Shown here piece after piece: positions 1 through 28,759 of a DNA stretch of 64,000 nucleotides; the stretch's first letter is position 1, and each line of letters begins with the position of its first letter. The DNA is taken from contig CAVPJW010000005.1 in the NCBI GenBank assembly GCA_963705525.1, positions 19,796 to 83,795 of the forward strand. Reading direction: 5' to 3'. This DNA is from an uncultured Acidobacteriota bacterium (GTDB lineage: Bacteria > Acidobacteriota > Vicinamibacteria > Vicinamibacterales > CAVPJW01). The notes beneath the pieces were generated by a model that did not search any database, was not told where the DNA came from, and saw nothing but the letters and a program-made list of their open reading frames with translations. A program made the position numbers and the translations under genes.

Positions 1-1413
1 ACGAGTTCACGGACAAGTCGATTGCGCCAGCATACCGCGTGCTCGACACAGGCGTGGCAATTGTGTCACTGGTGCTGGGCCTCATCCTGCTGAACCTGCC
101 ACACGACGCGCAGCACCTCGGGTCGTTCCTCGAGACGCGGATCACGCTCAAGAACGCGTTGCTCCTGTGCGGCCTGACACTCGCGTGGCCCTCCATGTTC
201 GCCGCCTTCGGCCTCTATCGCCTCGAAGAACTGAACACATTCACCACCGAGTTAAGTCGCGTCGCCAAGGCATGCACACTTGGCAGCGCGTTTGCGATCG
301 TCGTGGCGCTTACGAGCATGAGCGGCGCCTTCGGGGCGCTCTCGGTGCTCGTCTTCCTGCTGACCGTGACCATCGGCACGCTGTGCGCCCGTGCAGTCGG
401 GCGTCGGCTTCTGCGAGCCGTGGCCAGACACCAGGCACGTCCACCACGTCATCATCGCCGGCACCGGACCGGGAGCGGTGCAGCACTACCGACAGATAGC
501 GGAGCAGACTTCATACAACGTGCTCGGGTTCGTGGACACGATGGCGGTTGCGCCGCCGCTCGGCGCGTCCGGTCCACCGTTTCTGGGAACGATCGATGAC
601 CTCGAGAGAATCCTGGTGGCCCGCGCGGTAGACGAAGTGCACATCTGGCTACCAGTCAAGTCGTGCTACGCGGCAATCGAGCAGGTGATCGAGACCTGCG
701 AGAGAGTCGGGGTGGAGTCGAGTTACGAGGCCGACATCTTCCGCCGGTCGTTCGCCCATTCCGGGCAGACGCAGCCGACTCGGTCGTCGCGAGGAAGGTC
801 GCGCGATGACTATCGCCTCTGGACCAAGCGGGTCATCGACGTGTGCGGGGCGCTGGTCGGCCTCGTGGTGTTCTCACCGGTCATGCTCGCGGCGGCAACC
901 GCAGTCAAGTGGACGAGTCCTGGACCGATCCTCTTCACGCAGGAGCGTTTCGGACTTAACCGCCGCCGCATGAGGATCTACAAATTTCGCACGATGATCG
1001 CCGATGCCGCGGCACGACAGGCGGAATTCGAGGATCAGAACGAGGCCGACGGGCCCGTGTTCAAGATCCGGCACGATCCGCGCGTGACTCCCGTGGGCCA
1101 CTTTCTTCGGAAGACCTCGATCGACGAGCTGCCGCAATTGCTGAACGTGCTGAAGGGCGAGATGTCGCTGGTGGGACCTCGGCCCATGGCCGTTCGCGAC
1201 GTCTTCCGTTTTACGGAAGCATCGTTGATGCGTCGATTCAGCGTGAAGCCGGGGCTGACCTGTCTCTGGCAGATTAACGGCCGAAGCAACACGACGTTCG
1301 GTCGGTGGATTGAGCTCGACCTGGAATACATCGACCGGTGGTCACTGGGTCTTGACCTCGCAATCTTGGTGAGAACCGTACCGGCGGTACTGAAGGGCGA
1401 AGGGGCAGCCTGA
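1..1413 (+). pseudogene. Polyprenyl-phosphate glycosylphosphotransferase (EPS priming enzyme, WbaP/EpsB type); 5'-partial at window edge, one frameshift near 430-440 (or assembly error)
   Basis: The frame-3 ORF (open to base 1, ends 599) encodes the multi-TM N-terminus. The frame-1 ORF 391-1413 continues with HVIIAGTGPGA and the bacterial sugar-transferase domain ([53 protein letters not shown]). The frame switch lies at RAVARH | HVHHVIIAG. Confidence 0.85.
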
Positions 1414-1454
1414 ACCAAGGCCGTCTCTGACACGGGTGGAAGCGAGAGGGTGAT

Positions 1455-2420
1455 ATGAGGCGCGACTCGAAGATTTTCGTCGCCGGCCATCGCGGCCTGG
1501 TCGGTTCGGCATTGATGAGGCATCTCGAAGCCGCCGGGTACGATCATCTGCTCACCGCCACGCGCGACCAGCTCGACCTCCGCGATCAGGCGGCGGTCAA
1601 CTACTGGTTCCGCGCGAACCGACCGGAGTATGTCTTCCTCGTAGCCGGGACCGTGGGCGGCATCTTGGCGAACTCGTCGCGGCCCGCCGAGTTCATCTAC
1701 GACAACCTGCTGATCCATGCGACGGTCGTGCACGCCGCCTATCTGTACGTTAGCCGCAAGTTGCTGTATCTGGGGAGTTCGTGCATCTACCCTCGCGACT
1801 GTCCGCAGCCCATCAAAGAGGAATACCTGCTGACCGGCCGTCTTGAACCATCAAACCAGCCGTATGCCATTGCGAAGATCGCCGGCATTGAGTTATGCGC
1901 CGCCTACCGCCGGCAGTACGACAGTCCTTTCATTTCCGCGATGCCGACGAATCTGTACGGCACGAATGACAACTTCGACCTAACTTCGTCGCACGTGCTG
2001 CCGGCGCTCATCCGGAAGTTCCATGACGCCAAGCTGGCGGGCACGAGTACGGTCACGATTTGGGGCAGCGGTCGACCACGACGCGAGTTCCTGCATGTCG
2101 ATGATCTCGCCGATGCATGTGTGTTCCTGATGGACCACTACGACGATGCCCTTCATATCAACGTGGGCACGGGAATCGATCTATCCATCCGGGAACTGGC
2201 GGAGCTGGTGCGGGAGATCGTGTATCCGGACGCCACGCTTCAGTTCGATGCGACCAAACCTGATGGCACGCCACGGAAGCTCCTCGACGTCTCGCGCCTG
2301 CACGAACTGGGCTGGCGTCACAGCATCGAGCTGAAGGCGGGGATCGAGCAGACGTACGCGTGGTTTACGGAGCAATACGCCCCAAGCACGACCGCGCGGT
2401 CAACACTCGTCCAAGTGTGA
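1455..2420 (+). CDS. fcl: GDP-L-fucose synthase (GDP-4-keto-6-deoxy-D-mannose 3,5-epimerase/4-reductase)
   Basis: Intact 321-aa ORF. Motifs: [13 protein letters not shown] nucleotide-binding N-terminus, [17 protein letters not shown] (YxxxK), [24 protein letters not shown]. Colinear over its full length with Fcl/WcaG. Confidence 0.92.
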
Positions 2421-2467
2421 ACATGCGAGCCGATCAGGCTTGGTTCGCCACTCAAGATCTTACGTGA

Positions 2468-3340
2468 ATGATGAGCACCCCACGAGCAACGCAGCCCGGC
2501 GCCAGTGCCCCTGATTCGTCGGAGGACGCATACCCATCGATCGGCTGGCCGAGAAAATACGACGCCTTTGGGGTGGGGATCTCGGCAACCACCTACGCTG
2601 AAGTGGTTGATGTCCTGACCCAGTGCGCCAAATGCCATCGCCCGGCCATCGTCGATTTCACGCCCGTGTCCGTGCTGACGGAGGCGGCGTATGACAATGC
2701 GTTTCGCGCCAGAATTAACAGCTTCGATCTGGTCTGCCCTGACGGTCAACCTGTCCGATGGTGCCTCAATTATTTCCACAATGCGGGCCTTCTGGAGACC
2801 GTGTGCGGCACCACGACGACTCTCCGGCTCTGCGAACGCGCTGCGACAGAGAAGATCGGCATCTACCTGTACGGCTCGACCCCGGACACATTGCGACGAC
2901 TTCAGGCGAGTCTCCTCTGCCAATTTCCAGATCTCCGGATCGTCGGCGCTGAGTCCCCGCCATTCGTAGCCCTCAACCGCGAGGAACACAAGGCGGTCGC
3001 TCGTCGAATCAACGATTCGGGGGCCGGCTTCCTATTCGTCGGAATCGGCTCTCCTAAGCAGGAGAATTTCGCGTGGGAGCAGAGAGCCAGTATCCATGCG
3101 GTCCAGCTTTGCGTGGGCGCGGCATTTGACTTCATCGCGGGCACGAAAGAACGCGCGCCCCGCTGGATGCAGCGGGTCGGACTCGAATGGCTGCATCGCG
3201 CCGTCACTGAACCTGCACGGCTTGGCAAGCGCTACGTTGTTGGAAACTTCCGATTCGCGATGCTACTCGCGCCGGAACTCATCCGTCGTGCCAGGAGTCA
3301 GGTTGGCACACGCATTCGGACCGAGCGGCGGCTGAACTGA
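2468..3340 (+). CDS. WecB/TagA/CpsF-family glycosyltransferase
   Basis: 290-aa ORF with family-typical IYLYGSTPDTL, FLFVGIGSPKQENF, VGAAFDFIAG and GLEWLHR motifs. Confidence 0.85.
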   Translation: MMSTPRATQPGASAPDSSEDAYPSIGWPRKYDAFGVGISATTYAEVVDVLTQCAKCHRPAIVDFTPVSVLTEAAYDNAFRARINSFDLVCPDGQPVRWCLNYFHNAGLLETVCGTTTTLRLCERAATEKIGIYLYGSTPDTLRRLQASLLCQFPDLRIVGAESPPFVALNREEHKAVARRINDSGAGFLFVGIGSPKQENFAWEQRASIHAVQLCVGAAFDFIAGTKERAPRWMQRVGLEWLHRAVTEPARLGKRYVVGNFRFAMLLAPELIRRARSQVGTRIRTERRLN

Positions 3341-3415
3341 CAGGCCCATCCACATCGGCGAACACTCAGACTTCAGGGGAGCACACAGGTCGGCACATCA
3401 TGGAACAGACGGCCA

Positions 3416-3680
3416 TGAGAACATCCAGAGAGCGCCGGAGAGGCCACTTGCTCACGAACAGTTCATGGGGAATCGTTTCCCATGTATCTCAGACGGTCTT
3501 TCTAAGCCTCTTCTTCATCGTTATCGCGAGGAGGTACCCAACCGAGGAGTTCGCCAAATACGTCATCGCAACAGCCTAACCCAAATTTTATCGGCGTTCT
3601 CTTCGTTAGGCCTGGGCACCTGGTTCATCAGGGAGATCGTCGGTACAGATGACCGGGCGTCATGGGAACGCCATGCCAGA
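3416..3680 (+). pseudogene. N-terminal stub of a polysaccharide flippase (PST/MOP family), frameshifted and truncated
   Basis: ATG at 3416 reads MRTSRERRRGHLLTNSSWGIVSHVSQTVFLSLFFIVIARRYPTEEFAKYVIATA then a stop. The next frame continues LTQILSAFSSLGLGTWFIREIVG. This matches the typical first ~75 aa of Wzx-like flippases, and nothing follows. Confidence 0.4.
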
Positions 3681-3806
3681 TAGCTGGCATTCGCAATATC
3701 CAGAAACGCGATCACGAGTTCAGCAGCAAGATCGTCGTAACAATCGGCAACTTTTGCGGCGGTATCAAGAACTTCACGCGTCCCGGGATTCCTCCTGGCC
3801 AACGTC

Positions 3807-4775
3807 GTGGACGAGGTGGTGGTGGGACTGCCGGTCAAGTCGCTCTATGCGGAGGCGGCGCGCATCGTCTCGGTTTGTGAAGAGCAGGGGATCATCGTCA
3901 GGTGCCTCTCGAACATCTTCGACCATGCGCGTGGCCACTCGCAGGTCGATGAACTCCACGGCCATGCGGTCGTCACGGTCTCGTCCGGCGCGAGGTTCGG
4001 CCTGGCGACCGGCGTCAAGCGGGCGCTCGATGTCTGCGTCTCGGCGCTGCTGCTGCTCCTGCTGGCGCCTCTCGCCGGCGTCATCATGCTGGCCATCAGG
4101 CTGACGTCGCCCGGGCCCGTGTACTTCGCGCAGGAACGGTTGGGGCTGAACAAGCGACTGTTCAAGATGTACAAGTTCCGGACGATGGTGGCAGGGGCGG
4201 AGGTGAAGCAGGCTGAACTGGAGCGGTTGAACGAGGCGGACGGTCCGGTGTTCAAGATCCGGAGTGATCCACGAATGACGCGGCTTGGACGGTGGCTACG
4301 GAAGACGAGCCTCCACGAACTGCCGCAACTTCTCAACGTCCTGAAGGCCGACATCAGCCTGGTCGGACCGCGCCCCCTGCCGGTCCGGGACTACGAGCGA
4401 TTCGGCGAGGACTGGCATCGGCGCCGGTTCAGCGTGAGGCCCGGCATGACATGCCTCTGGCAGGTGAGCGGCCGGAGCGACACGTCTTTCGACCGGTGGA
4501 TGGCGCTGGACATGAAGTACATCGACACCTGGTCGCTCGGGCTCGACCTACGGATCCTGGCGAAGACGATTCCGGTGGTTCTCAGTCGATCTGGTGCAGC
4601 CTGCCAGCCGGTGGCTACGGTCAGACCGGCCATGCGATCGGATCAGGCTCGGAGTCGGCCCCAGACCAGCGGCCGAGGCCGCGTACACTCGATCGTGCTG
4701 GATGTCACCAGGTGCCTATCTGTGGTCGTTCGCTGCAATAACCCAGTGCCCCCAATCGTCACGGATCAGGCCTGA
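3807..4775 (+). CDS. Truncated paralogue of the priming glycosylphosphotransferase (catalytic domain only, with a ~60-aa read-through tail)
   Basis: VDEVVVGLPVKS..., one TM (VSALLLLLLAPLAGVIMLAI), [52 protein letters not shown]. The frame is closed by TAA at 3738-3740, so the N-terminal TM/Rossmann half is absent. Where the paralogue ends ...GAA-TGA, this copy reads GAA-TGC and runs on. Confidence 0.75.
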   Translation: MDEVVVGLPVKSLYAEAARIVSVCEEQGIIVRCLSNIFDHARGHSQVDELHGHAVVTVSSGARFGLATGVKRALDVCVSALLLLLLAPLAGVIMLAIRLTSPGPVYFAQERLGLNKRLFKMYKFRTMVAGAEVKQAELERLNEADGPVFKIRSDPRMTRLGRWLRKTSLHELPQLLNVLKADISLVGPRPLPVRDYERFGEDWHRRRFSVRPGMTCLWQVSGRSDTSFDRWMALDMKYIDTWSLGLDLRILAKTIPVVLSRSGAACQPVATVRPAMRSDQARSRPQTSGRGRVHSIVLDVTRCLSVVVRCNNPVPPIVTDQA

Positions 4776-4799: not shown

Positions 4800-6184
4800 G
4801 TGACTTTGCCTCGATTCGGAACAGCAGCTCTATTGGGAATTCTGGTTGCCACGGCGAGTATTGTGTATGAAGACCGACTGCCTCTGCTTGAGCGCAGGCG
4901 GCATAAGCTTCCATATCGCAGATATCTTGCTTTTGGGATCGTTAGGGCTTATTGCCACTCGTCGGTTGGTTGTGCCCGAGTTCACGATGGTACGGACGCC
5001 ACTCGACCGGCCGCTCCTGATCTTCTTCGGGGTGACGCTTCTCTCGACTGTTATTGCGCTCTTGCAGTCATCGGTCGACTTTCATGAAGCTCTCAGGGCC
5101 ACCCGCGTCTTCTCTTATTACTTGACCTTCTTCGTTGTCACCAATCTGGTCAGGGAACGCCGCCAACTCGCCTTCCTGTTGAATGGCATCTTCATTCTTG
5201 CGACCTTGGTTGCCGCGGCGATGATAGGACAATACCTGCTGGGTGACTCCGTGACCCTTTTGCCCGGCCGGGTTGAGGCCTTGGAAACTCAGGGCACAGC
5301 GTTTGAGGCCGTTACGCGAATAGCCCCACCCGGTTTTTCAATCGTCCTGGTTTCGTTCGTGACAATCTCTTGCATCCTGGTGTTCGAAAGAGTGAAGCCG
5401 ACAGGATTGCTCAAATTCTCTCAATGTGGATTGATGGGCATGGCGCTCGTGGTCACCTTTCTCCGCAGTTATTGGGCCGCATTGTGCGTAGTCCTGTTTC
5501 TGATGGTGTGCCTCGTCAGAGGCGCCGACAGGCGAAGATTCATGGGTTGGGGGATGGTGGTCATATGCCTCGGCAGCGTTGATTCTGCTCGTCGTATTCA
5601 ACGACACAAACTCATTGGGCTCGAGGTTGTTGGTGGCGTTTGGGGATAGGCTGGGCACACTTTCCAGCAGCGGGACGTTTCAGGGTGGCGATAGCTCCGT
5701 AGAATGGAGAATGATCGAGAATCGCTATGCTTTCTCTGCGATCGCGTCAAATCCAGTGGTAGGCCTGGGAATGGGAGCCATATACAGACCATGGGATTCC
5801 ACACTTGACTTCCGGGATGCCGATGGTGTTGACCACGACTTCAGGAGGCACATTCATAACGGTCACCTATGGATTCTGCTGCAATCGGGTCTGCTTGGCT
5901 ATCTCAGTTTTGTGTGGCTGTCGCTTGCCTTCCTGATGCGTGGGTTCACGCATTGGCGCAGCGTACCCAACGACCGGATGAGGAGCGTGGTGTTGGGTTT
6001 TACCCTCGCCTATCTGGCCGTGTTCATCGCCGCAGTGGCCAATTCTTCATTCATGCAGTGGAACTGGACTCCCGTCATTGGAATCATGATGGGCATCAAC
6101 GAGGTTGTTCTGAGGCAGGTCAGGGAGGATGAGTCATCAGCCTTGATCAGTCCGTTCAGATCCGCAAGCAGCCACGAGCGATGA
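4800..6184 (+). pseudogene. wzy: O-antigen ligase/polymerase-like (Wzy) membrane protein, frameshift near 5578 (possibly another near 4895)
   Basis: ORFs 4846-5649 and 5579-6184 are consecutive halves of one multi-TM protein. The second half carries the Wzy_C-type loop (EWRMIENRYAFSAIASNPVVGLGMG ... HIHNGHLWILLQSGLLG). ORF 4800 encodes a plausible first TM in a third frame. Confidence 0.7.
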
Positions 6185-7658
6185 GGAGGCTCATCAAGAA
6201 CCTGGCGATCTATGCGCCGTCACAGTTCTTACCCGCTCTTACCGCCTTTGTCACTACTCCAATTCTCACGAGGCTCTTCCTTCCGGCGGAGTACGGCGAT
6301 TGGTCAATTGCATTGAGCGCCATCGCATTCCTGGTTGCGCTGGCCGGCTCTGGTCTGGGTAGCGCCTCGATACGCTTTTACCCGAGCTATAAGTCGAAGT
6401 CGACCCTGAACATTTTCTTCGGGACCATCGGTGTGTCTATTGGCGCAGCCATCACTGTTGTTGCCGGGGCCAGTGTTCTCACTCTCGTTTTGCTCAGGCA
6501 GTTTCTGCCTGCTGCGCTGGTAAGACTGTTACCTCTCGTCATCCTGATCTTTGTGGCCCAGAGTATCGTCGGCATTGCGATGGCTGTTGTCAGAGCTCAA
6601 GGGCGCAGCGGACTATACACATCGTTTCAGCTCGCAACGAACTACGGTGGCCTTGGACTTGGGCTGCTCCTGGTTGCGGTATTCGGTTTCCGAGTTGAGG
6701 GTCTCCTGTGGGGCACGTTTCTAGCCCTTCTCGTGAGTCTGCCTTTTCTGGTTTCCCAGACCACCAAAACTGTGGGCATTCGGATGCAGCACTTTCGCCT
6801 TGCGGATGCCCTCCAAATCTGGCGGTATGCCTGGCCGTTGACTCTGGGGAGTCTGGCCATGTGGGGATTGCGGCTATCCGACCTATTTATTATCAGATCA
6901 TTTTCCTCCGCGCGCGATGTGGGGCTCTACTCGGTGTCATATAACCTCTCCGCCAGGAGCATTGAGCTTCTCGTGGCATTGTTTCTGCTGACGGTGTCAC
7001 CTTTGGTCTACAGCACTTGGGAAACGGAGGGACGAGAGGCAACTGAATCGACCCTGACCGCAGTCACCCGGATTTACCTGGTCCTGTGCGTGCCAGCGGC
7101 TGTTGGGCTGACCGTTCTGGCTGTTCCGTTTGTATCGCTACTGACAGCGCCGGATTTCCATGAGGGTGCCAGAATCGTCGGCTTTGTGGCATTTTCCAGC
7201 CTTGTGTGGGGACTGGCGAACATCGCCATGATGGGCTTAACGATAAGAAGCAAGCACGTCGACTCGGAGCCAACCAGCTTGTGGCTGCCTCCACACACGT
7301 CGCTTTGCAGTTAGTGTTCGTGCCTCGCTTCGGTTACATGGCGTCGGCCATCTCGACGCTGATCGGCTACACCGGCTTGCTGCTCTTGAACACTCATGGC
7401 TCACGATCACAACTGACCTGGCGAGTTCCGTTCCGTACACTGCGAAACGTTAGTGCTGGGTCAATGGTGATGGGATTGGTTGCCTGGGGAATATATGGAC
7501 TCTCTGGCGAAGGGAGCGAGGTATCAATAGCCTATCTTTTTCTGAGCGTCGCGGTGGCGGTTCCTACCTATGTCGGTTGCCTTTGGTTGCTGGGTGAGGT
7601 GAGGGAGGCGGAGAAGAGTGCGGTCCTGGAGCTATGGGATGGCGTGGTGGGTAAGTGA
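6181..7658 (+). pseudogene. wzx: Polysaccharide flippase (Wzx, MOP/PST family), frameshift near 7232
   Basis: ORF 6181-7314 (about 10 TM, N-terminal MRRLIKNLAIYAPSQF...LTRLFLPAEYG) continues in ORF 7206-7658 (KKQARRLGANQLVAAS...FGYMASAISTLIGY). The junction ACGATAAGAAG fits a 1-nt loss in an A run. ATGA overlap with the wzy stop. Confidence 0.78.
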
Positions 7659-9676
7659 GGTTCAGATCGGTGCCGCACTATCGCCAGCGCATCCGGGAAC
7701 TGGGCGCTTTGGGAACACTGCAGCGTATCTGGGCGCGGCTCATGAATCGGCTCGTTCTGCGGGGTCAGTCGTTGTGGTGGGGCTGGAGGGCTCGTCAACA
7801 AATGAGCGATGCTGCCCTGCTGGCTCGCACGACAGGCGACTGGCGCTCCGTGGATGCCCTCCTCGAAGACCTGGCCAGCCGTCCTGCCTCGTCGTTCATG
7901 CTGCCACATGAATCGCCGGATGAGACGGCCGCGATCCTTAATCGCTACTACCCTGAGTATGTCTCAGCCCTCCTCGCCGCTGCGGACGCCTGCTGCCGGA
8001 ATGAGCTTCGGCTGCTCGGCAGGTGTTTCCGTTTTCCGGGAGGCATCGATTGGCAGACGGATCCCGTCACAGGTTGGCGCTGGCCTCTGGTGCATAGAAG
8101 CCGCGTAGGTCGGTATCTTGGGTCTGAGCGCCCGGTTGATCTCATAGTCTTCTGGGAGCTCAACCGGCACCAGCACTTCATCACCCTCGGGATCGCCTTC
8201 TGGCTGACCGGCGACCAACGGTACGTGGATACCTTCAGCTCCCAGGTTCAGAGTTGGATCGAGACCAATCCACTGCAGCACGGCGTCAACTGGTTTTATG
8301 GCCTGGAGGTATCGATTCGCATAATTGCCTGGACTGTGGCGTTTCAGTTCTTTCGCACGTCACAACGATTCCAGGAGAAGACCGGCGAAGCCTTCCTGAA
8401 GAGCCTGTGGCAGCAGGCCGATTTCCTGAGGAGTCACCTGCGAACAGCCAGAAGCAAGGAAGATGTACCTAACAACCATCTACTGGCGGAACTGACAGGT
8501 CTGGTCCTCGTCGGGGTCGGCTTTCCCCGAGTTCCGCGCAGCGGCAGCGTGGCGTGAAACCGGTCTACGTCTGCTCAACCAGACAGGCAGCTGCACAAAC
8601 GCACCCTGACGGCGTTAACAAGGAACAAGCGACCGGGTACCACCGTTTCGTAGCCGAGCTGCTGCTCCTGATCGTGGCGCGCAGTCGTCAGGGCGCGCTG
8701 CCGCGTGCGCCTATTCTGGAGGATACGCTGGAGCGGATGCTGGACTATGTGCTCTTTACCTCGACACCGGCTGGAACTGCGCCGATGTGGGGTGATTCCG
8801 ATTACGGACGCGCCCTGGGCCTGGGACAAAACAAAGACTTCTGGGACTTCCGTCCACTTCTGTCGGCAGGGGCAGCGTTGTTTGGCCGACCTGACTGGAA
8901 GTTTGCGGCCGGCCGCTTCGACGAGGAGGCGTTTTGGCTCCTGGGCTCTGACGGTCTGGATCGTTGGGAACAGCTTGACGCTCATCCGCCCGAGCAGACC
9001 TCGCGGGCCTTTCCGCAGGCGGGCCTGTACGTCATCCGCGATGCGTGGGCGGCAGATACGGATGTCGCTTTCTTCCGGTGTGGTCCGTTCGGACTAGGAG
9101 GCGAAGGACATTGTGCCCACGCGCACTGTGATCTTCTCAGCTTTGTTCTGTGGGTAGGCGGTCGACCGCTGCTCGTAGACTCGGGCACCTACATGTACCA
9201 CGGCCCCTGGAGGGATCATTTTCGTCTTACAGCAGCCCACAACACGGTGATGGTCGATGGCCGCGAACAGGCTATCCCAATGCCCAATTTCAATTGGCAG
9301 CAGATCCCCGAGGCGAAGTGTATCGACTGGACCGGGGAGCGTGTGACAGGGGCATTGACCTATTCCGGCCAGGTGGAGTTTATCCGAGAGCTGGCCCATC
9401 CACGACCAGGTGTCTGGGAGTTGGTCGACAAGTTTACTGGGCAGTGATGAACACAGAATGGAGTGGTTTTTTCATTTTGCTCCTGGCCTGGATTTGCATC
9501 TACACGAAGGAGGGCATACGCTTACAGTGCTTAAGGAAGGCCGCTCCTTCGTGATCGTGCACATTCCGGGCAACGGGGTCCGCCCCCAGTTGAGAGACAC
9601 CTGGTATTCATGCCAATACGGGGTTAAACAAGGCACCCGAGAACTGTATGCCATGGTGGCAAGGGGAACCAGGTAA
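7655..9676 (+). pseudogene. Heparinase II/III-like (alginate-lyase/heparinase superfamily) protein, three frame changes (~8528, ~8583, ~9441)
   Basis: FWELNRHQHFITLGIAFWLTGDQRY, NWFYGLEVSIRIIAW, NNHLLAELTGL, then FPEFRAAAAWRETGLRLLNQ in a third frame, then HPDGVNKEQATGYHRF, GHCAHAHCDLLSF, AAHNTVMVDG. The C-terminus lies in ORF 9410-9676. An extra C in a CCCC run is seen at 8525-8528. GTGA overlap with the wzx stop. Confidence 0.8.
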
Positions 9677-9752
9677 GGGAGCGTCGTTCCACTGGCAGTT
9701 TCATCTCGCTGGCGAGGAACGCCTGCGAACAGGAGAACATTGCGATCACACT

Positions 9753-9767
9753 GTGTACTGAGTCAGA
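9753..9767. repeat. IS630-family insertion sequence, left terminal inverted repeat (approximate boundary)
   Basis: Imperfect 15-bp terminal inverted repeat (12/15): GTGTACTGAGTCAGA at 9753-9767, pairing with TCTGAATCACGACAC at 10896-10910. The flanking dinucleotide on this side is CT, not the TA seen to the right of the other repeat. Confidence 0.5.
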
Positions 9768-12252: not shown

Positions 12253-12277
12253 TTCTTGAAATTGTCGGTCCTGACAT

Positions 12278-13427: not shown

Positions 13428-13618
13428 TGGTTGCTGCGGGCCGTGTCAACGGCTTTGAGACGACCTGGTGATTCAGCATCTACTGTAGCAACTCCGCGGT
13501 GTTGATCGTCGAGATCGGCAGTAGTCAGACAAGGGATCACACGACAGTCAGAGGGCGTAGCACGACCGTCGCCGGGTGGTGATATCCGCGGGTTGCGTGA
13601 CTGATTCAGAGGGTGCCG

Positions 13619-17382: not shown

Positions 17383-17423
17383 AGGCATTGCACGGTGTCT
17401 CGCCTCCGTCAAGAGGCTCTAGG

Positions 17424-18230: not shown

Positions 18231-18239
18231 GTTACCGAG

Positions 18240-18540
18240 ATGCTGACGGGTTGTTGCGTTCTTGTCTTCGGCATCGGGCGGGCCAGCCATATGGCAAGGG
18301 ATTAGAGGTGAAACATTTCGACAATAATGTTTCGATGTCGAGACTCATTGGCGGCAATAAGGCATTTATTTAACAGGCGCTTCCCCACATTTCCGCCATG
18401 ATGTGCGATTCGCTGGAGGAGGTCGTGCAAGGCGCCGATGGCGTTATCGTGGGCCACGAGTTGCAGGATGGGGAGCGTACTTGGTCAGGCTTTTAAGACC
18501 GGAGCAACTGCTTATCGATTTGGTAAAGATGGTCTCGGGG
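18240..18540 (+). pseudogene. Degenerate 3' remnant of a GDP-mannose 6-dehydrogenase (AlgD-like) gene
   Basis: Frames read GKGLEVKHFDNNVSMSRLIGGNKAFI / FPHISAMMCDSLEEVVQGADGVIVGHE / LLRPEQLLIDLVKMVSG. This is colinear with the AlgD C-terminus as I recall it (LIGKGYELRIYDRNVEYARVHGANKEYIESKIPHVSSLLVSDLDEVVASSDVLVLGN...KKLVDLVG). Interrupted by stops and frameshifts. Confidence 0.5.
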
Positions 18541-18638
18541 CGCTCATCCTCTGGTGCATATGAAGGTATCTGTTGGTAGGCGGGCGCCTTCAGGCTGTCC
18601 AATGGTCCTTTGAGCGTCGTCGTGATCAGGGAAGTGAT

Positions 18639-19868: not shown

Positions 19869-20054
19869 AGGCGCGGAGGCTTGCGCTGGTGCAAGTCCGG
19901 AGCGCCTGATCTGTTCACCCACAATCGAGGGATATGCTCACAGATGGGTCGCGCCGCTGCGCGCGGCCGAACACCTCGCGTGCACATCCCTATAGCACAG
20001 GTGCGGCGATGGGACGGGGCGAAGGGTGACTACGCGCCAGGAGCACGTTCGCTA

Positions 20055-22018
20055 ATGTGCGGCATCGCCGGGCTTTGGACCCTGAGCGGGGCCCCATCCG
20101 ACTTGCTCGCGGCAACCGCGCGGGCGATGGCCGATGCAATGGTCCACCGCGGACCGGACGACGCAGGCACATGGACCGAAGAGGAAGCCGGGATCGGATT
20201 TGGCCACCGGCGCCTCGCGATCGTGGATCTTACGCCAGAGGGCCATCAGCCGATGGGCTCGGCCGACGGGCGGTGGGTGATCTCGTTCAATGGCGAAATC
20301 TATAACTACAAAGCGATTCGCGCCGAACTTGATGCGGCGGGCGGACCCTTACCGTGGCGTGGCCATTCGGACACCGAGGTGCTGCTCGCCGCGATCGTCC
20401 GCTGGGGAGTCGAGGCGAGCCTCGACCGCGCCGTCGGTATGTTTGCTATCGCGCTCTGGGATCGAGCAGAGCGTACGCTATACCTCATGCGTGACCGCAT
20501 CGGTGAGAAGCCGCTCTACTACGGGCTGTGCGCCGACGACTTGGTGTTTGGTTCGGAGCTAAAGGCGCTGCGTGCGCACCCACGTTGGCGCGGTGACATC
20601 GATCGTGACTCTGTCGCGGCATTCATGCAGTATTCCTGTGTGCCTGCACCGAGGTCGATCTATCGGGGCGTCAACATGCTCCCGGCAGGCACATTCCTGG
20701 TGATTCGGCCCGACCATGTGTCCAGGCGCGTGTTGCCAGTGCCAAGGCGCTATTGGTCACTGACCGAAGCCATCGCCGCGGGGCGACGCTCCCCCCTTGT
20801 ACTGAGCCAGACCGAAGCGGCGGACATGGTCGAGCAACAGCTCCGCGTGGCAATCGCTGGCCAGATGGTCGCCGACGTTCCCGTTGGCGCGTTCCTTTCG
20901 GGCGGCATCGACTCTTCGGTTGTCGTGGCACTGATGCAAGCACAGGCCACCCAGCCGGTTCATACCTTTGCCATTGGGTTCACCGAGGCTGAGTACAACG
21001 AGGCCGGCCACGCGGCGGCAGTCGCGAAGCACCTCGGGTAACTGATCACACTGAGCTCATCGTGAGCCCGGATGAAGCGCGGGCTGTGATTCCCGAGCTT
21101 CCCGATGTTTACGATGAGCCGTTCGCGGATTCGTCGCAGATTCCGACGCTCCTCGTCTCCAAACTCGCGCGTCGGCACGTGACCGTAAGCCTTTCCGGCG
21201 ACGGGGGCGATGAGACGTTCGGGGGCTACAGCCGGCACTGGGGTCCCGATGCGCTTGGGCGGCGATTCATACACCAGTCGCGGCTGGTGCGCGCGGCTGC
21301 AGCGCGCGTCCTCACAGCAGTCCCCACTCGGGGCTGGGATGGCGTATTCAGGACTCTGGGGCTTGTATTCCCGTCCGCGCGACGCGTCACGATGCCCGGC
21401 GACCGCATTCACAAATCGGCGCGACTGGTCGGCGCCACAGGCGAAAGCGACCTCTACGAACGCCTCGTCTCAGTTTGGCATCCGTCCGCCGTCGTTCTTG
21501 GCGCCACCGCACAACGGCTCCCGGACGAGGTAACGCCGGGTCTCAGCGTTGCCGGGGAGCGCATGATGGTTCGCGACACGCTGCGCTATCTGCCCAACGA
21601 TATTCTGGCGAAGGTCGATCGCGCCGGCATGAGCGTTAGCCTGGAGAGCCGTATGCCGCTGTTGGATCACCGCCTGCTGGAGCTTGTCTGGCGATTGCCC
21701 GCCGAGGACAAGCTGGCCAACGGCGTCGGGAAGCGTGTCTTACGCACGGTGCTACACCGCTACTTGCCCCGGGCACTGGTCGAGCGGCCGAAGCAGGGGT
21801 TCTGCATTCCGGTGGATCGTTGGTTGCGCGGCCCGCTGCGCGAGTGGGGCGAGGGACTCCTCGATCCGGTGCGCATTCGTCGGGAGGGGTTTTTCGCTCC
21901 GCAGCCGATCAGCGCAGCGTGGCGTAACCATCAAGCCGGTCGGCGCAATTTGGCGGATCAGCTGTGGACCGTGCTCATGTTTCAGGCTTGGCTCGAGCGA
22001 TACGGCCACACCATCTGA
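20055..22018 (+). pseudogene. Asparagine synthase-family amidotransferase (second copy), frame break at ~21040
   Basis: MCGIAGLW start at 20055, HRGPDD, NGEIYNY, PP-loop FLSGGIDSSVV, ...AKHLG-stop. Then TDHTELIVSPDEARAVIPELPDVYDEPFADSSQIPT and LSGDGGDETFGGY follow in the next frame. Confidence 0.88.
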
Positions 22019-22205
22019 ACGCACCAGGGAGCGTGGCTCGCCCGAGTGCAATTGCCTTGATTCCCGGACGTGGTCGCTGTCTTCATGGGGTCAGCTACTG
22101 CGTCCTGTTCCTCGCGACGGTCTGCTCGGCGGTGAACCGGGTGCTGTCGTGAGCCTCCGCGCCTCGCGGCAGACCATCTCAAGGGCAAGGAGCCACGAAA
22201 GGCAA

Positions 22206-23563
22206 ATGAACAAGGTGCTTATGATTGCCCGCGTCTTTCCGCCCTTCCAATCCGTGGGACACTCAATTCGGGTGGTCAAGTTCATCAAGTACCTGCCGGC
22301 GTTGGGCTGGCTGCCGTCAGTCCTGACTATTGACGACCGAACGGAGTATGAGTTCGATCGTAAACAGGGTAGTGAAACCTTGCTTTCGGAGATCCCGCAA
22401 GAAGTGTCGATCTATCGGACAGCTGCAGGGGAGCCGTCGTTGAGAGTTTCTGGAAAAGGAGAGGGAATTTGGCCAGCGGAACTGGCTGACAAGAGTGATT
22501 GTGAAGGTTCTGGGTGGAGCACGTCGTTGGGCATTCCGAAACATCTTTCTGCCGGACCGGTACCTTGTCTGGCTGCCTTTCGCTCTAAGACGGGGGCGAC
22601 AGATTGTGAGGAGTGAAGGAATCGATGTCATCTTTGCCACATGCCCACCTCACTCTGCTACCCTGGTTGGCGCATTCTTGAAACTGATTGACGGGCAAGC
22701 CGCTCATTCTGGATTTCCGCGATGATTGGATTGACACGCCCTGGTATCATTCCAAGCCCACAATTATTCGCATGATCGATCGCAGGATGGAAAGCTGGGC
22801 GGTCAAGACAGCCGACAAGGTTATCCTGGTCACGGAATGGAGCAAGAACGCGTTCCTGGAGCGCTATCCCACAGAGCCCAGTGATAAATTCGTTTTCATT
22901 CCCAATGGTTGTGATCTTGCGGAGTTTGCTGTGCTGAATTCGATGACGCCAGCGCCCCGCAACTCCAAGTTCACGATTGTACATGCAGGATCCCTGAACG
23001 ATTCAAAGGATTGGACACGCAGTCCAGCGACGCTCTTTCAAGCCGTCCAGCACATTCTGCAACGAGCAACCAGAGCTGGCGGAGAAACTGACCTTGGCCT
23101 TTACGGGGTTCCTCCCAGAAGGACATCAGGCAGTTGGCAGAAGAAATGGGCTTGTCAGGTGTGGTCAAGGAGTTGGGGTTTCTGCCGCGTGATGAAGTTT
23201 TGCGCCTCTATGCAAGCAGCCGACCTGCTGCTTGCCATCAATTACGAGGGCTTTTCTACCCTGATCCCTGGCAAGATCTATGAGTACTGGGCTGTCGGTG
23301 GCCCGCCGATTCTCTTGCTCAGTTGTCCTGGCGCCGCGGCAAGCTTCGTGGAACAGCACAGCCTCGGACTCACGGTCGATCCTTCCGATGTAGCCGGGAT
23401 ACAACAAGCCATCCTGACGGTATATCGCCAAAGCAAGACGGCCGCGCCGCTGCGCGTGAGCACCGCCGGCATCGAGGCGTACGATCGCCAGGCATTGACC
23501 CGTAAACTTGCACAGGTTCTAGCACGTATGAGTTGTGACTGTGACTCATGTCCGGGCAGATAG
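22206..23563 (+). pseudogene. GT4 glycosyltransferase, diverged duplicate of 10927-12252 with about five frameshifts
   Basis: MNKVLMIARVFPPFQSVGHSIRVVKF... aligns residue by residue with copy 1. The alignment jumps frame near 22440, 22685, 23055, 23125 and 23215 (for example QPELAEKLTLAFTGFLPEGHQA and LAEEMGLSGVVKELGFLPRDEVLRLY lie in other frames). Confidence 0.82.
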
Positions 23564-23669: not shown

Positions 23670-24551
23670 GATGACTGAACCGAAAGATCTATGGGTATTT
23701 TGGCCATCACAAATGTGCCAGTACGTGGTTCGGAGAGATATTTTCCGATGTTTGCCTTGACCTTGGACTTCGTTACAAAATCGTTTATAGGAAGCAGGAT
23801 TTCAATGGCGATCTGAGAAGGTACATCACGGAAAACAACATTGATTTCATAGCGTACGCCAATGCCGATTTCAGCCAAGTCGCCAAGTTGGAAAATCTTG
23901 TTGGGATCCATGCTGTGCGAGATCCGAGAGACATTATTGTTTCTGCCTACTTCTCGCATCTCAAGACACATTCAACAGATACTTGGCCGGAATTGATAGC
24001 ATATCGCAAGAAACTGCAACAGTGCGATCAAGAAACCGGCCTCTTCCATGAGATCGCCTTCAGGAAGGAGCAGTTCGATGAGATGAGATCTTGGAAGGAT
24101 TTTCACGGCGATAACATCATGCAGGTGCGCATGGAGGATGTTACCTCAAGGACCTATCAGTCCATGTTGTCGATCGTCGGCTTCTGGGATTGGTAAATGT
24201 AGGAACGTTACGGCTTCTCGAAAAGGCTCGAGTACTTGTTTGCAAAGCTTCTCAGAAATATCGAGTTCAAGGTTGGGAGTGCCGCTTCCTCGGATTCTTC
24301 ATGCTTTGCCAGCTGAGAGAATACTGGGAATAGTATGGAAAAACGAGTTTGAGAAGAAGTCAGGTGGAAGGAAGATAGGCGAAGAAAACAAAGATAGCCA
24401 TTACAGAAAAGGTGTTCACGGGGATTGGAAGAACTACCTGACCAGAGATCATATAGCGCTAATTAAGCAGCAGTACGACGACGTCATATTGCGATATGGT
24501 TATGAAAGGTCTCCAGAGAAGCACCGCGGGATAGCAGGGCTTGACGGATGA
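23670..24551 (+). pseudogene. Sulfotransferase (Sulfotransfer_1-like), at least 3 frameshifts
   Basis: ATG 23670 (MTEPK), then the next frame KIYGYFGHHKCASTWF (5'-PSB-like), HAVRDPRDIIVSAYFSH (3'-PB), and after breaks near 24190 and 24290 ...SHYRKGVHGDWKNYLT. This is the most AT-rich stretch of the window (by eye). Confidence 0.65.
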
Positions 24552-24903: not shown

Positions 24904-26400
24904 ATGATTGGAAAACTCCGGCAAACCAACGGCGGAACACTTGCCGCAACGTTCAGCCTTTTGCTCCTTGCGCTGCACGTCGCGGTTGCGTCGCTGGTCA
25001 CGAGCGACGGTTTCTTGAGCCCTGATTCCACCGGCTATCTGGCTCTCGCGCGAAATATGCTGGACGGCCACCTACTGCCTGATGGAGTTGCAACATCGCG
25101 GCGGCTTCGCGCATTTTTCTACGCAGCCGCCGCTGTATGCCGCCGGCATCGCGGCCGTCGGCGCGATCCTGCCGCACAACGCGATCGCCATCTTTGCCGC
25201 CTCGAAAATCTTCAACGTGATTTGCGCGGCGGCGACCATATGGATGCTGGCCCGCGCGCTTCCTAAGCAAGGATGGAGGGCCGGCTTGCTTCTGCTGGCC
25301 ATGCCGTTTCTTTCTCTTTTCACGTTCACATGGTCGGAGGCGCTTTTCATTCCATTGATGATCGCATTTGCGATTTCGTTCGACCGGCTGCGCGCCGGCA
25401 CAGAGCCGGCTTCTGGAACCGCCATTCTGGCCGGCCTGATTTCTTGCGCACTGATCGCGACGCGGTATGCCGGAATTTTTGCGCTGCTGGTGCTGGCGTT
25501 TGCAGCAGCTGTTGCGTTTCTTTGTCGTGACAAGCGGCGCGGAATTTTGGCCGCTTCTGCTGCGATGATGGGAGGCGTGGCACTCGCTTCGATTGTAATG
25601 TGGAACAGGCATGGCGGCGGGCTGGCCGGGAATCGCGCGGCGGCACCCGAATCGCTTATGGATCTGACCATGCAGGCCGGCCTCGCCCTTCTCGTTGCGA
25701 CGGACCTGATGGTGCGCGAACTTGGAACGTGGAAACGGACCGCCCTGGCGCTGATGACCGGCGCAATCGAAGCCGCGGCGGTCGTTCACGTCGGCGTGGT
25801 TCTTCGGCAGTGCCCGACATCTTCTCCGGCGACGATGTTCACTCTTCCCGCACCATGGCCATCGTGGGTGCCATTTATCTGGCGTGCATTATCGCGCTTC
25901 GCTTCGCCGTGCGATTCGATGCGCTCGGCTATCGGCTTCTTGGCCCCGGTGTGTTTTGCCTGTTCGTGGCCCTCGTGTTTTACGCCGAGCACGCGTTTCC
26001 TTCCGCTGCGTTGCAGGTTTTTCGCCGCTGGTGGATTGCGATCATCGTGATCGGTTTTTTGATGGGGTCGCCTCTTTATCTGCTCGACCATGCGCGGCCT
26101 TTTTATCTGCCGGAATGCGCGAGAATCCTGCGGCAGTATGAATCAGTTCCACCGCAGGCCATCGTCGCATTTGGCGACATGCACCTTCGATATCTTCGGC
26201 CGGACCTCGACAGCGTTTCGCCGCTCGATCCGCCGCACGCGATGCAGCCCGAGACGATGGCCGCGTTTCTGGAACGGATCAAGTCATCCCCCGCCGGGCA
26301 CGTTGTCATAGAAATGCGGCCCCCTTCGGAAATGGCGACGGAGGATCGCGCGGCGTTCATGCGGCAGCACGAAGGTGAAAGGTTTGTCGTCATCCGCTGA
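24904..26400 (+). pseudogene. Multi-pass membrane protein, GT-C/ArnT-like glycosyltransferase or polymerase (function uncertain), two frameshifts (~25080, ~25800)
   Basis: MIGKLRQ..LLLLALHVAVASLVTSDGFLSPDSTGYLALARNMLDGH, then FSTQPPLYAAGIAAVG... with 8-10 TM helices across three ORFs (24739, 25082, 25600). Soluble C-terminal ~110 aa. Confidence 0.4.
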
Positions 26401-27884
26401 CACTTACCTGCTTGGGAGTAAGTGCCATTGGTAAGCTCCTATATCTGGGGCCGAACCTTGGGGAACGATGGCTCCGGCGAAGTCTGAAGCTAATCCAACA
26501 TTAACCCCGGCATTGATTGCAGGAGAAGACGGCTGGAGCCGGAAATCGAACGTGGCCGGACTCACCATCAGCGGATCGGCAGAGACGACCGTGGGTTCCC
26601 AGGTGTTTACCGTCACTGCGATCCTTCCATGTGCCAGCGGTCACATCTCCCAATGCCACCATCCCCGTGACTCCATACGTGCGAAAGAGCGCATTGTGGC
26701 TATGGATCATCGATCCAGCCGTGTTGACGTAGACACACAAATTTCCATACCGGTTGGTGCCGGTGTTATAGATGAGATTGTTTCTGGCCGTCACGACTCC
26801 GATGGTTTGCGATGAATCATACAGACCAATACCACCCGTGGTGTAGATGACGTTATTGAAGAAGCGCAGCGCAGCGCCAGTGTAGTCTACGGCCGTCCCG
26901 CGCATGATCGCGATGCCACCGCCACCCGGGATCCAGCGTGCCAGACGCGAATTGATTGTAATACACGTCGGCCGTGATGGCCTGCCCTGGTTGAATAAAC
27001 AGCGCCCATTTGCTGGTCACTCTAATGTTGTTGTAGCGAACCGTAACGCCCGTGGGGAAATAGCCCGGTAGAGGCTCGTTGCTTTCGATGTGAAATCCGT
27101 GTCCGAAGCCTGATGCGCCCGTCGTGATCGTGTTGTGCTCGACCACGACGTTTGTCGTTTTGTTGTTGAGTTGTAATCCGTAACCAGTGGGCGTGTTTCG
27201 CCTGCCATAGTTCGTGATCGTGTTGTACCCGATATATGAGTCGCGAATGTGCGCGGGCACGGCACCGAGATCCGAGCGCCCTGGATAGAACGACAGCGCT
27301 TCATCATCGACCCCGTCAATCGTCACACGCTGAATCGTGATGTTGGACATGTCGTTGTGCCACGGTTGCACCAGCAAGCCCAGTCGATAATCGCCCCCGT
27401 TCCCGCAATTCGTGATGGTCACGTCTTGGATGGTGATAAACCTCTCCGCGTTTTGCACGGCGCCGATGCTGTTACCTCCATCAGGTCCCCCAATGATCAG
27501 GCCAAACGTCTGCGTGTTGTTGCCATCCACCGTCACGTTCTGGAAGGTCACATAACTGGCGCCGACGATATTAACGACCGCGTTGTTGCCCCAGGCGCGA
27601 TTCCCGCTCGATCGGATCACGGCATTCGCGCCCGATCCCCACAATCCGCCGTCCCAGACAATCGGCGCGCCGGTCGTTCCCCCGTGACTGATCTTCAATG
27701 CGGTCGTGGATGCCCACACATCGCCACGCTTGAGCGCAATCGTGTCTCCAGGCAGGAGCGTGGTGCTCGCGCATACGCTGGTGCAGCCGTCATCCCAGGC
27801 GCGTGGGCAAACGGGTGTCCTGGTGTCAAACCCCGTGTTGGCGTCAGACGCCGGCTTCGACACGTAGAACGATCCTCGTCGGCG

Positions 27885-28759
27885 ACGTGGGCGGTAGGTT
27901 GATGGCGTTGACGCTGATCGTGACATCGGCGGTCGCCGAGAGCGCACTGTCGGTGGCGGTCAAGCGGAGCACATAGGTCCCGGCCGACTGAGAAGCTCGC
28001 GGTGGTGCTCTGGGCGTTGACGTTGCCAAAGGTGACCGTGCCAGGGCCGCTGACTCTCGACCAGGTCCGAATCAGGGCGCTGCCCGCGGGCAGACCGTCG
28101 TCGGACGCCGTGCCGTTCAGGCTAGCTGAGGCCGGCAGCGTAATCGACTGATTGGATCCCGCGGAAACGGTGGGCGGCTGATTGACAGCCTGCGCGGCAT
28201 TGACGGCGATCGTCACGGTGGAACTCGTGGTCAGCGCCCCGTCAGTCGCGGACATTCCAAGCACATAGAGACCGGCCGCGGAGAAACTGGCGGTGGTGCT
28301 GCGGGCGGCGCTATTGCCGAACGTGATGCTGCCCGGACCGCCGACCTTGCTCCATTGCGTGGTCAGCGTACTGCCCCCTGGGAGGCCGTCATCGCTGGCG
28401 GTGCCATTCAGGCTCGCCGAGGCCGGCAGCGTGATGGTTTGAGGGGATCCGGCACTGACGGTCGGCGCCTTATTGGCGCCGTTGACCGCGACGGTGACAT
28501 CGGCCTTCGCCGAGAGAGCGCCGTCGGTGGCCGTGAGCCGCAGCACATACGTGCCGGCAGCGGAGAACGTGGCGGTGGTGCTCGGAGTGTTGACGTTGCC
28601 GAACGTGACCGTGCCAGTGCCGCTGACTTTGGACCAGCTCCGGGTGAGCGTACCTCCCGTGGGCAGACCGTCATCCGAGACCGTGCCGTTCAGGCTGGCC
28701 GGCACCGGCAGCGTGACGGCCTGATTGAATCCGGCACTGACGGTGGGCGGCTGATTGAC
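27885..28759 (-). repeat. About four tandem ~285-bp coding repeats (PKD/Ig-like units)
   Basis: Repeated protein units (...PTVSAG.NQ.ITLPASASLNGT.SDDGLP...) with recurring DNA strings such as GCCGTTCAGGCT.GC.GAGGCCGGCAGCGT. Confidence 0.7.

Follow-up and report, generated by a model that had tools for sequence, protein, structure and literature searches.

Indels left in long-read (Nanopore or PacBio) assemblies, among them consensus artefacts of collapsed haplotypes, are known to create false pseudogenes (PMC8445201; PMC12007338). Such errors vary from one assembly to another of the same DNA and become worse at low coverage or where haplotypes are mixed (PMC8445201; PMC12313526; PMC12007338), and the authors of the MFD metagenome-assembled genomes (MAGs) state that residual indel errors remain at low coverage (PMC12313526). 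The window analysed here, a stretch of 64,000 nucleotides from a Vicinamibacterales (Acidobacteriota) metagenome contig, resembles such assemblies in that its ORFs are split into apparent pseudogenes by indels only. Typical residual Nanopore errors are deletions in long homopolymers, whereas those in the window are mostly +1 insertions of A or T outside runs; unlike typical long-read errors, they are also not contig-wide but confined to two sub-segments of one island. Decaying, pseudogene-rich loci are a second described system to which the window bears a likeness, with many disrupted genes beside an IS element and a truncated relic. It departs from them in the lack of nonsense codons, of relaxed dN/dS and of conserved-residue loss; moreover, the disruptions are not reproduced in a contig that is 99% identical, and real decay is visible only in the relic at 18162-18576. 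We consider it very probable that these frameshifts are errors in the consensus of a long-read metagenome assembly, concentrated in poorly read-supported parts of an accessory EPS island.

The island itself compares well with Wzx/Wzy surface-polysaccharide loci. Like these, it has a priming transferase, Wzy, Wzx, several GT4 glycosyltransferases and sulfotransferases, together with AsnB-like amidotransferases, an acyltransferase and a deacetylase, and like the strain-variable members of this class it has a lower G+C content than its flank and a mosaic identity to another haplotype. The Bac_transf, Wzy_C, Polysacc_synt and GT4 families occur in it together (Pfam), and orthologous cassettes are present in two other loci, L161 and L163. 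This Wzx/Wzy locus is horizontally mobile and varies between strains. Its polysaccharide product is probably sulfated, and compared with known loci it is ordinary except for the presumed consensus errors superimposed on it. The features are the following.

3..1413, plus strand: priming sugar transferase (CoA_binding_3 and Bac_transf); one +1 at ~423-437
1455..4775, plus strand: clean block with NAD-dependent epimerase/reductase (fcl-like), WecG/TagA-family glycosyltransferase and second Bac_transf transferase; full-length single-frame Pfam matches
4800..6184, plus strand: wzy-type polymerase; +1 at 4884 and 5563
6181..7658, plus strand: wzx-type flippase; -1 at 7243 (AAA to AA)
7655..9761, plus strand: heparinase II/III-like protein; +1 at 8510, 8580, 9436 and 9653
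9828..10913, plus strand: IS630-family transposase; -1 at 10092, 10574 and 10882
10927..13060, plus strand: clean block with GT4 copy 1 and sulfotransferase 1
13613..15512, plus strand: AsnB-like amidotransferase 1; one +1 at ~14600
15632..18230, plus strand: clean block with hexapeptide acyltransferase, GT4 and polysaccharide deacetylase (Pfam)
18162..18576, plus strand: UDP-glucose/GDP-mannose dehydrogenase relic; ~95-140 C-terminal codons only, in-frame TAA at 18371
18573..19868, plus strand: GT4 glycosyltransferase, intact (Pfam; full-length single-frame homologue matches)
20052..22018, plus strand: AsnB-like amidotransferase 2; +2 ('TA') at 21039-21040
22179..23563, plus strand: GT4 copy 2; five +1, at 22440, 22684, 23063, 23124 and 23206
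23671..24551, plus strand: sulfotransferase 2; -5 at 23684, -1 at 24185, +1 at 24199, +1 at 24269
24904..26400, plus strand: GT-C-like membrane protein (weak DUF2142 match); -2 at 25072, -1 at 25847 (C4 to C3)
26407..29836, minus strand: FG-GAP/PKD/beta-helix gene, ~1130 aa; +1 at ~26612, 26925, 27873 and 27987
28001..64000, no strand: control region; no frame disruption found

Events were located first by Pfam profile coordinates split across adjacent frames and then by frameshift-aware protein-to-DNA alignment against intact homologues. This gave 28 frame-disrupting indels in the first 28 kb and none in 28-64 kb; under a uniform rate, such a distribution (28/28 events in the first 28 of 64 kb) has a P value of ~1e-10. 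The first-pass annotation had counted about 25 disruptions, all in the first ~28 kb, had held that uniform error would not cluster in this way, and had seen no comparable frameshift density in the rest of the window. All of this stands: each gene that it had called broken was found broken again and nearly every position was matched, with the three breaks given for the heparinase-like gene becoming four +1 events upon alignment to homologues. The events are uneven within the island as well, with ~2 per kb at 4.9-10.9 and 21.0-28.0 kb and ~0.1 per kb elsewhere. The ten broken genes contain no nonsense codon. One candidate, at 24194 in sulfotransferase 2, was rejected, as it results from a -1/+1 pair 14 nt apart.

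For several genes the profile matches themselves change frame. In the priming transferase, CoA_binding_3 positions 2-77 lie in one frame and positions 80-169 in the next, as confirmed against the L057 and L063 homologues. Asn_synthase positions 2-68 and 84-353 are in different frames in AsnB-like 1 (also by blastx to many homologues and frameshift-aware alignment), and positions 2-71 and 72-354 are in adjacent frames in AsnB-like 2, where the residues of homologues are contiguous over 21038/21041. The heparinase-like gene has its Pfam N and C domains in separate frames; it was aligned to its counterparts of 664 and 693 aa in L161 and L163, and its nucleotide alignment shows single T and A insertions that lie outside any run. 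After frame correction, wzy is ~61% identical to the intact 494- and 496-aa proteins of these two loci, and wzx is 71-74% identical to their intact 495- and 499-aa proteins. For GT4 copy 2, the indels were placed against the GT4 proteins of L161 and L163 and against the paralogue, copy 1. Those of sulfotransferase 2 were placed by the frameshift-aware method against intact homologues of ~285 aa (identity of up to 85%), and those of the GT-C-like gene (homologues P0272-P0274) by alignment to P0273 and comparison of the window with the contig L166, described below. Neither sulfotransferase 2 nor the GT-C-like protein had a match of 90% identity or more in the protein collection. Exact look-ups of 26501-26905 (minus strand), 24138-24551, the fcl-like gene and a PD40-repeat gene (36071-37906) returned no record, but such blanks are uninformative because the choice of start codon affects this type of matching.

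The right-hand boundary of the affected region was studied in the beta-helix gene. The 'gene' first seen here and an 'intact' 758-aa FG-GAP/PKD ORF belong to one minus-strand gene, of which the former encodes the C-terminal part; the error-rich zone therefore ends mid-gene, at 27987. The complete protein has a signal peptide, FG-GAP repeats, three PKD domains and a right-handed beta-helix (Pfam on the N-terminal part, three-frame reading, and alignment to P0122, P0123 and P0124), and all four indels are in the 3' 1.6 kb of the gene. The extra base at 27985-27989 is confirmed by the spacing of the PKD repeats, which is 292 nt versus 291 nt. Misassembly of these repeats as the cause of the boundary was rejected, as they are only 65-80% identical at the DNA level. 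Beyond the boundary, in 28-64 kb, Pfam searches of the major ORFs revealed no adjacent same-strand ORFs matching one family, a codon-model Viterbi analysis gave no frameshift in any real gene, and the M48 peptidase aligned to three orthologues (~83-86% identical) without a shift. This check is less sensitive than the one on the left side because homologue-based alignment was possible for one gene only.

An independent public contig, L166 (ENA ERZ25039602), overlaps the window from 18.3 to 27.7 kb at 86-99% identity. Stretches of 86%, 93% and 99% identity make up a mosaic, and L166 has one GT2 gene that the window lacks. As a reference L166 is imperfect, being of poor quality too and perhaps derived from a related data set. 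This assembly of the same or a closely related haplotype covers 14 of the frameshift sites of the window and keeps the frame at 12 of them. In the 86-93% part these are 21039 (where it reads HLGTHHTELIV), 22440, 22684, 23063 and 23206 (four of the five shifts of GT4 copy 2), and 23684, 24185, 24199 and 24269 (all four sites of sulfotransferase 2). At 25072, 25847 and 26925, the last in the beta-helix gene, its base count restores the conserved protein ('DGHGYCLMELQH', 'MFTLPRTMA' and 'GTLDPGGGGIA', respectively). Conversely, L166 has at least five shifts of its own, at 25663, 26121, 26910, 26997 and 27220, where the window is in frame. Over the ~2.9 kb at 24786-27711, the two are 99.2% identical and differ by 12 mismatches and 10 indels, the latter adding up to 12 gap bases; the substitutional identity is 99.6% and the indel:substitution ratio is ~1:1. 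The 12 substitutions, of which 7 are synonymous and 5 non-synonymous in the corrected frame, look like true polymorphism in selected genes. For the left segment, genome and metagenome contigs contained no near-identical second assembly (best matches, 75-81% identical), and the case for artefact at 4.9-10.9 kb and at ~430, ~14600, 27873 and 27987 is made by the indel spectrum and the selection tests only.

The first-pass annotation had offered two explanations, genuine decay of an accessory EPS locus and a consensus that is locally poor because the island has low coverage or varies between strains. L166 supports the second, with 12 of the 14 shifts absent, different ones of its own, mosaic identity and the presence or absence of GT2. 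The first fits badly with genes that have no nonsense codons, an unchanged dN/dS and intact conserved residues. In the form of recent pseudogenisation, it would mean that an older wzy-wzx-heparinase...GT4-sulfotransferase cassette became redundant through the IS630-associated arrival of a second block (GT4 copy 1, sulfotransferase 1, AsnB-like 1 and others) and is now decaying by frameshift. Indeed, the broken EPS genes belong largely to the cassette whose genes are contiguous in L161 and L163, most of the interposed block is unbroken, an IS630 element lies at the junction, and the stop codon of the dehydrogenase relic, common to both assemblies, represents real decay nearby. We nevertheless regard pseudogenisation as improbable. 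Most of the testable sites are in frame in the near-identical L166, indels are as frequent as substitutions between the two assemblies, the events are mostly insertions outside homopolymers, and the affected zone ends in the middle of a gene. The disruptions are indels rather than substitutions (28 indels against 0 nonsense codons), and with 12 indel bases to 12 substitutions in the ~2.9 kb shared at 99% identity, the indel:substitution ratio is far above biological values.

Selection points in the same direction. The annotation had proposed a search for relaxed selection, and none was detected by dN/dS, a type of test that is blind to very recent inactivation: frame-corrected window genes compared with intact L161 gave 0.16-0.29, which is not above the 0.20-0.37 of L163 versus L161, both intact. 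For GT4 copy 2, dN/dS was 0.13-0.41 in each inter-frameshift segment, and sulfotransferase 2 carries the conserved residue in all 42 columns with at least 95% conservation across 116 homologues. The frame-corrected genes are shown to be under purifying selection. In the organism itself, the wzy, wzx, heparinase-like, GT4 copy 2 and both AsnB-like genes, jointly with the sulfotransferase 2, GT-C-like and FG-GAP/PKD/beta-helix genes, are most likely unbroken and functional.

Of the 28 indels, 19 are +1 and six are -1, with one each of +2, -2 and -5, and where the inserted base is unambiguous it is mostly a single A or T between unlike bases. The annotation had placed several breaks in short homopolymers. 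Some 5-6 of the 28 do lie in such runs, without any enrichment over the background: close to events, the longest run has a mean of 2.46 nt versus 2.28 nt for background positions, and runs of at least 4 accompany 3.6% of events versus 7.2% of background positions. The homopolymer association typical of Nanopore errors was not seen among the 28 events, and we infer that the spectrum suits a low-depth or mixed-haplotype consensus better than homopolymer miscalling. AGGCA and GCAGT, which resemble methylation motifs, are in weak excess near events, with 6 versus 0.87 expected (uncorrected P of 2e-4, marginal after multiple testing), which hints at a context-specific error. Surface-polysaccharide loci are classic phase-variation targets, and the sites could in principle be programmed or phase-variable frameshifts of contingency loci that toggle EPS genes. 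As the sites have no homopolymer or short-tandem-repeat tracts, number up to five in one gene and differ between near-identical assemblies, we give this a negligible probability. It is also highly improbable that the indels are real and reflect a recent, insertion-biased and homopolymer-independent frameshift process acting independently in co-occurring strains, for example, local hypermutation of the EPS island.

A mixed case, in which most indels are artefacts and a minority are real, is possible, although we think it rather unlikely. The candidates are the -1 shifts of the IS630 transposase, which may be a defective IS copy, and the sites at 23124 and ~26612. The latter two are shifted in the window and in L166 alike, and the IS630 events are all deletions, unlike the insertion-dominated remainder; defective IS copies are common. 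However, downstream of 23124 dN/dS between the two haplotypes is 0.16 at a dS of 0.74, and therefore a frameshift inherited by both is excluded. At ~26612 the assemblies differ in detail (two compensating indels and a mismatch), and the weak motif excess hints at context-specific error. Mixed lesions shared between strains were found only in the dehydrogenase relic and not in the ten broken genes.

If the shifts are consensus errors, low depth, mixed co-occurring strain haplotypes or both may have left parts of the island with poor read support. The platform was probably Nanopore, with metaFlye and Medaka, because the closest relatives are Microflora Danica long-read MAGs (Nanopore-only MFD MAGs) and L166 has a Flye-style contig name. 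By automatic annotation, this Vicinamibacterales MAG would be credited with a 'decaying' EPS island and with about ten pseudogenes, and pseudogene counts, coding density and pathway calls, including that of sulfated-EPS synthesis, would be wrong. Residual long-read errors can be sharply local, tracking strain-variable islands, and can thus escape notice in quality scores computed for a whole contig.

Beneath the shifts the biology is ordinary, with a large secreted protein of FG-GAP/PKD/beta-helix type and a wzy-wzx-heparinase-GT4-sulfotransferase cassette that is shared horizontally. The cassette is common to different phyla and contiguous in L161 and L163. An orthologous island was not found in related genomes; relatives with a 79-86% identical M48 peptidase have no synteny beyond M48, and among the best 80 loci retained no relative of AsnB-like 1 exceeded 49% identity. 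The duplicated GT4/sulfotransferase pairs, the IS630 insertion and the dehydrogenase relic are signs of real rearrangement. The transposase gene lies between the heparinase-like gene and GT4 copy 1, and its indels were placed by alignment to WP_131690191.1. The frame-corrected protein is ~61% identical over 98% of its length to single-ORF IS630 transposases, a family of DDE transposases of about 350 aa with N-terminal HTH domains, and HTH domains were detected in it by Pfam. Neither terminal inverted repeats nor a TA duplication could be recognized around the gene. The IS630 insertion in the island is real. The relic, recognized by tblastn and frameshift-aware alignment to a 439-aa L161 protein, is a genuine pseudogene fragment, and its TAA at 18371 and the flanks are identical in L166. 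The clean genes align in one frame over their full length: GT4 copy 1 to the L161 and L163 GT4 proteins (65-69% identical), sulfotransferase 1 to Sulfotransfer_3, and the acyltransferase and GT4 of the 15632..18230 block to L044 ORFs (52-56% identity). The 290-aa WecG/TagA protein of the first clean segment (2468-3340) has exact matches on Logan contigs from two runs, ERR15459715 and ERR12036778.

Judged from its Pfam matches, the first 28 kb of the window encode a Wzx/Wzy-type polysaccharide locus. The G+C content of this island is 0.53-0.62 over most of its length and rises to about 0.65 around 20-22 kb; beyond 28 kb it is 0.60-0.66. The GT4, sulfotransferase and AsnB-like genes of the island include paralogous pairs, and the genes follow one another as listed here.

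Gene order in the island (Pfam)
1, priming transferase
2, epimerase/reductase
3, WecG/TagA-family transferase
4, second Bac_transf transferase
5, wzy
6, wzx
7, heparinase II/III-like protein
8, IS630 transposase
9, GT4 copy 1
10, sulfotransferase 1
11, AsnB-like 1
12, hexapeptide acyltransferase
13, GT4
14, deacetylase
15, GT4
16, AsnB-like 2
17, GT4 copy 2
18, sulfotransferase 2
19, GT-C-like membrane protein (weak DUF2142 match)
20, 26407-29836, minus strand, one large FG-GAP/PKD/beta-helix protein

Frame-disrupting indels were located with a frameshift-permitting protein-to-DNA aligner written for this analysis. Its references were the cassette proteins of four homologous contigs with an intact cassette (L161-L164), an annotated IS630 transposase, beta-helix homologues (P0122-P0124), GT-C-like homologues (P0272-P0274), and AsnB and priming-transferase homologues from other loci. 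The alignments gave 28 such indels in the island, with one at or near every break reported in the first-pass annotation and a fourth in the heparinase-like gene, at 9653, that had not been listed. Pfam profile coordinates continue across frames in the priming transferase, the heparinase-like gene and both AsnB-like genes. The breaks assigned to a beta-helix gene exist, but this is not a separate gene; it is the 3' part of the gene with the 758-aa FG-GAP/PKD ORF, and the spacing of its PKD repeats (292 versus 291 nt) independently reveals an extra base at 27985-27989. The claim that disruptions are confined to the first ~28 kb also held, with 28 events to the left and none to the right, where the check is less sensitive, as only one gene could be compared with close homologues. 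That gene, an M48 peptidase (31.7-33.1 kb) with 79-86% identity to proteins of Vicinamibacterales (Acidobacteriota) MAGs, showed no shift in alignment with three orthologues. Elsewhere on the right side, neighbouring ORFs fall in different families and a codon-model Viterbi analysis found no shift in any real gene. By our own calculation, a uniform rate would give such an asymmetry with a P of about 1e-10. Within the island, the segments 4.9-10.9 and 21.0-28.0 kb have a density of about 2 events per kb, and the segments 0.45-4.9 and 10.9-21.0 kb have almost none.

Most of the 28 events are very probably artefacts. The best GT-C-like homologue, P0272, proved to be this very gene with another set of frameshifts, and its contig, L166 (ENA ERZ25039602, contig_39540, 10.26 kb), overlaps the right part of the island.

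Matches of L166 to the window
18277-23521, 86% identity
23665-24550, 93% identity
24786-27711, 99.2% identity

The 99% stretch differs by 12 substitutions (in corrected frames, 7 synonymous and 5 non-synonymous) and 12 indel bases. At 25072, 25847 and 26925 of the window, the number of bases in L166 is the one that yields the conserved protein, and at 25663, 26121, 26910, 26997 and 27220 it is L166 that is shifted and the window that is in frame. To the left of this stretch, L166 keeps the reading frame at 21039, 22440, 22684, 23063, 23206, 23684, 24185, 24199 and 24269; it has extra shifts of its own, of which seven fall in the GT4 and one in the sulfotransferase. Site by site, 12 of the 14 window shifts that it covers are therefore not reproduced in L166, which is itself error-ridden and may not be a data set independent of the window's; the left error-rich segment and about 4-6 other events lie where there is no second near-identical assembly. 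Both assemblies carry a shift at 23124 and at ~26612, with different details at ~26612. Between the sulfotransferase and the GT-C-like gene, in the interval 6303-7333, L166 also carries a 302-aa GT2 glycosyltransferase gene, where the window has only 236 nt (24550-24786), a presence/absence difference between island haplotypes.

Against intact L161, the frame-corrected window genes gave dN/dS values of 0.28 (wzy), 0.16 (wzx), 0.21 (heparinase-like gene), 0.29 (GT4 copy 2) and 0.19 (sulfotransferase 2), each no higher than the value for the same gene between L163 and L161, where both copies are intact, so selection does not appear relaxed, although such tests are blind to very recent inactivation. 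For GT4 copy 2, the comparison with L166 gave 0.24 at a dS of 0.52, with 0.13-0.41 across all segments between frameshifts. Downstream of the shared site 23124 the value was 0.16 at a dS of 0.74, which excludes common inheritance of a frameshift by the two haplotypes. Among 116 homologues of sulfotransferase 2, 42 columns show conservation of 95% or more, and the window protein has no deviation in any of them; the same test on intact homologues gave 0-2 deviations. Of the two explanations first offered, a locally poor consensus is favoured by L166, and decay finds no support in dN/dS or the conserved columns. These data do not fit decay, which we regard as very improbable for most of the 28 events, but they do fit random, assembly-specific consensus errors lying over intact genes. 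That at least a few of the events are real is rather unlikely.

The indels are mostly gains of one base (+1, 19; +2, 1; -1, 6; -2, 1; -5, 1), and the sole +2 is the 'TA' at 21039-21040. Nucleotide alignment to L161 showed that the unambiguous insertions are a single A or T flanked by unlike bases, as in GTCGGGG[T]CGGC, AACCAG[A]CAGG, AAACTG[A]TTGAC and TAAATG[T]AGGAAC. No homopolymer enrichment was found at the indel sites and no nonsense codon in the broken genes; a stop at 24194 is only apparent and results from a -1/+1 pair 14 nt apart. GT4 copy 2 regains its frame after three successive +1 events, and each intervening segment continues to align with the references in its shifted frame. Within 8 nt of the 28 sites, AGGCA (6 versus 0.87 expected, uncorrected P of 2e-4) and GCAGT/ACTGC (5 versus 0.69 expected) are weakly over-represented, and GCAGT is present at both doubly shifted sites. 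This excess, marginal after multiple testing, may reflect a context-specific, perhaps methylation-related, basecalling error.

The errors are sharply local, both between island and flank and between segments of the island; for this the best explanation, which we infer, is that read support was poor or mixed in strain-specific parts of the island. Three observations agree with this explanation. The island exists in at least two haplotypes, the window type and the L166 type; a protein from a clean segment (2468-3340) has its exact sequence on Logan contigs of ERR15459715 and ERR12036778; and in the protein collection nothing reached 90% identity to sulfotransferase 2 or the GT-C-like protein. 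False pseudogenes from long-read indels, and further such artefacts from haplotype collapse, are described in the literature (PMC8445201; PMC12007338). Many of the M48-matching MAGs, with which no synteny was found beyond that gene, belong to the Microflora Danica long-read catalogue, which is Nanopore-only and whose authors describe Nanopore-associated errors that persist in MAGs of low coverage after a single Medaka round (PMC12313526).

Some features of the island are genuine. The IS630 element, which separates the heparinase-like gene from GT4 copy 1, is real and carries three -1 shifts of its own; terminal inverted repeats and a TA duplication were not found. After the last frameshift, the window frame runs stop-free into the ATG of GT4 copy 1 (10927); CTRISESRH, the true C-terminus of the transposase, lies in a different frame and stops at 10910. 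The gap preceding the GT4 at 18573 contains a 5'-truncated UDP-glucose/GDP-mannose dehydrogenase relic (18162-18576), whose in-frame stop, a TAA at 18371, is shared unchanged by L166. This relic is a true pseudogene fragment and an example of real decay in the island, and in L161 a full dehydrogenase gene stands just upstream of a GT4, matching its place.

With frame-corrected sulfotransferase 2 as the query, intact homologues of about 285 aa were found, up to 85% identical. The pairs L161/L162 and L163/L164 carry intact wzy, wzx, heparinase-like, GT4 and sulfotransferase genes (57-89% identity to the window copies in HSPs), with a UDP-glucose dehydrogenase in L161/L162 only. Gemmatimonadales and Sedimentisphaerales MAGs, as well as JGI metagenome contigs, contain the same cassette with protein identities of about 60-89%, and it has the appearance of a sulfated-polysaccharide module that moves horizontally. 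Its relatives (L161-L164, L167-L173) are assigned to different phyla, and the window copy (4800-9761 and 22179-24551) is interrupted by about 12 kb that hold other EPS genes. The 26407-29836 protein (about 1130 aa, secreted) has about seven FG-GAP-like repeats, three PKD domains, a right-handed beta-helix and the usual C-terminal end '...DFRLQ..SPAI.AG...GAY'. Its place beside the EPS locus makes a polysaccharide lyase or depolymerase a possible identity. In L161, too, a beta-helix gene follows the cluster, on the opposite strand.

Just outside the island boundary, a PemK/MazF-family toxin gene (~30612-30932) and the small co-oriented ORF upstream of it (region 30345-30932) probably form a type II toxin-antitoxin pair. 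At the window end, a minus-strand ORF that runs off it (63369-64000) has part of GH97_N (profile positions 54-126) followed directly by GH97_C, an odd order with no catalytic domain between the two.
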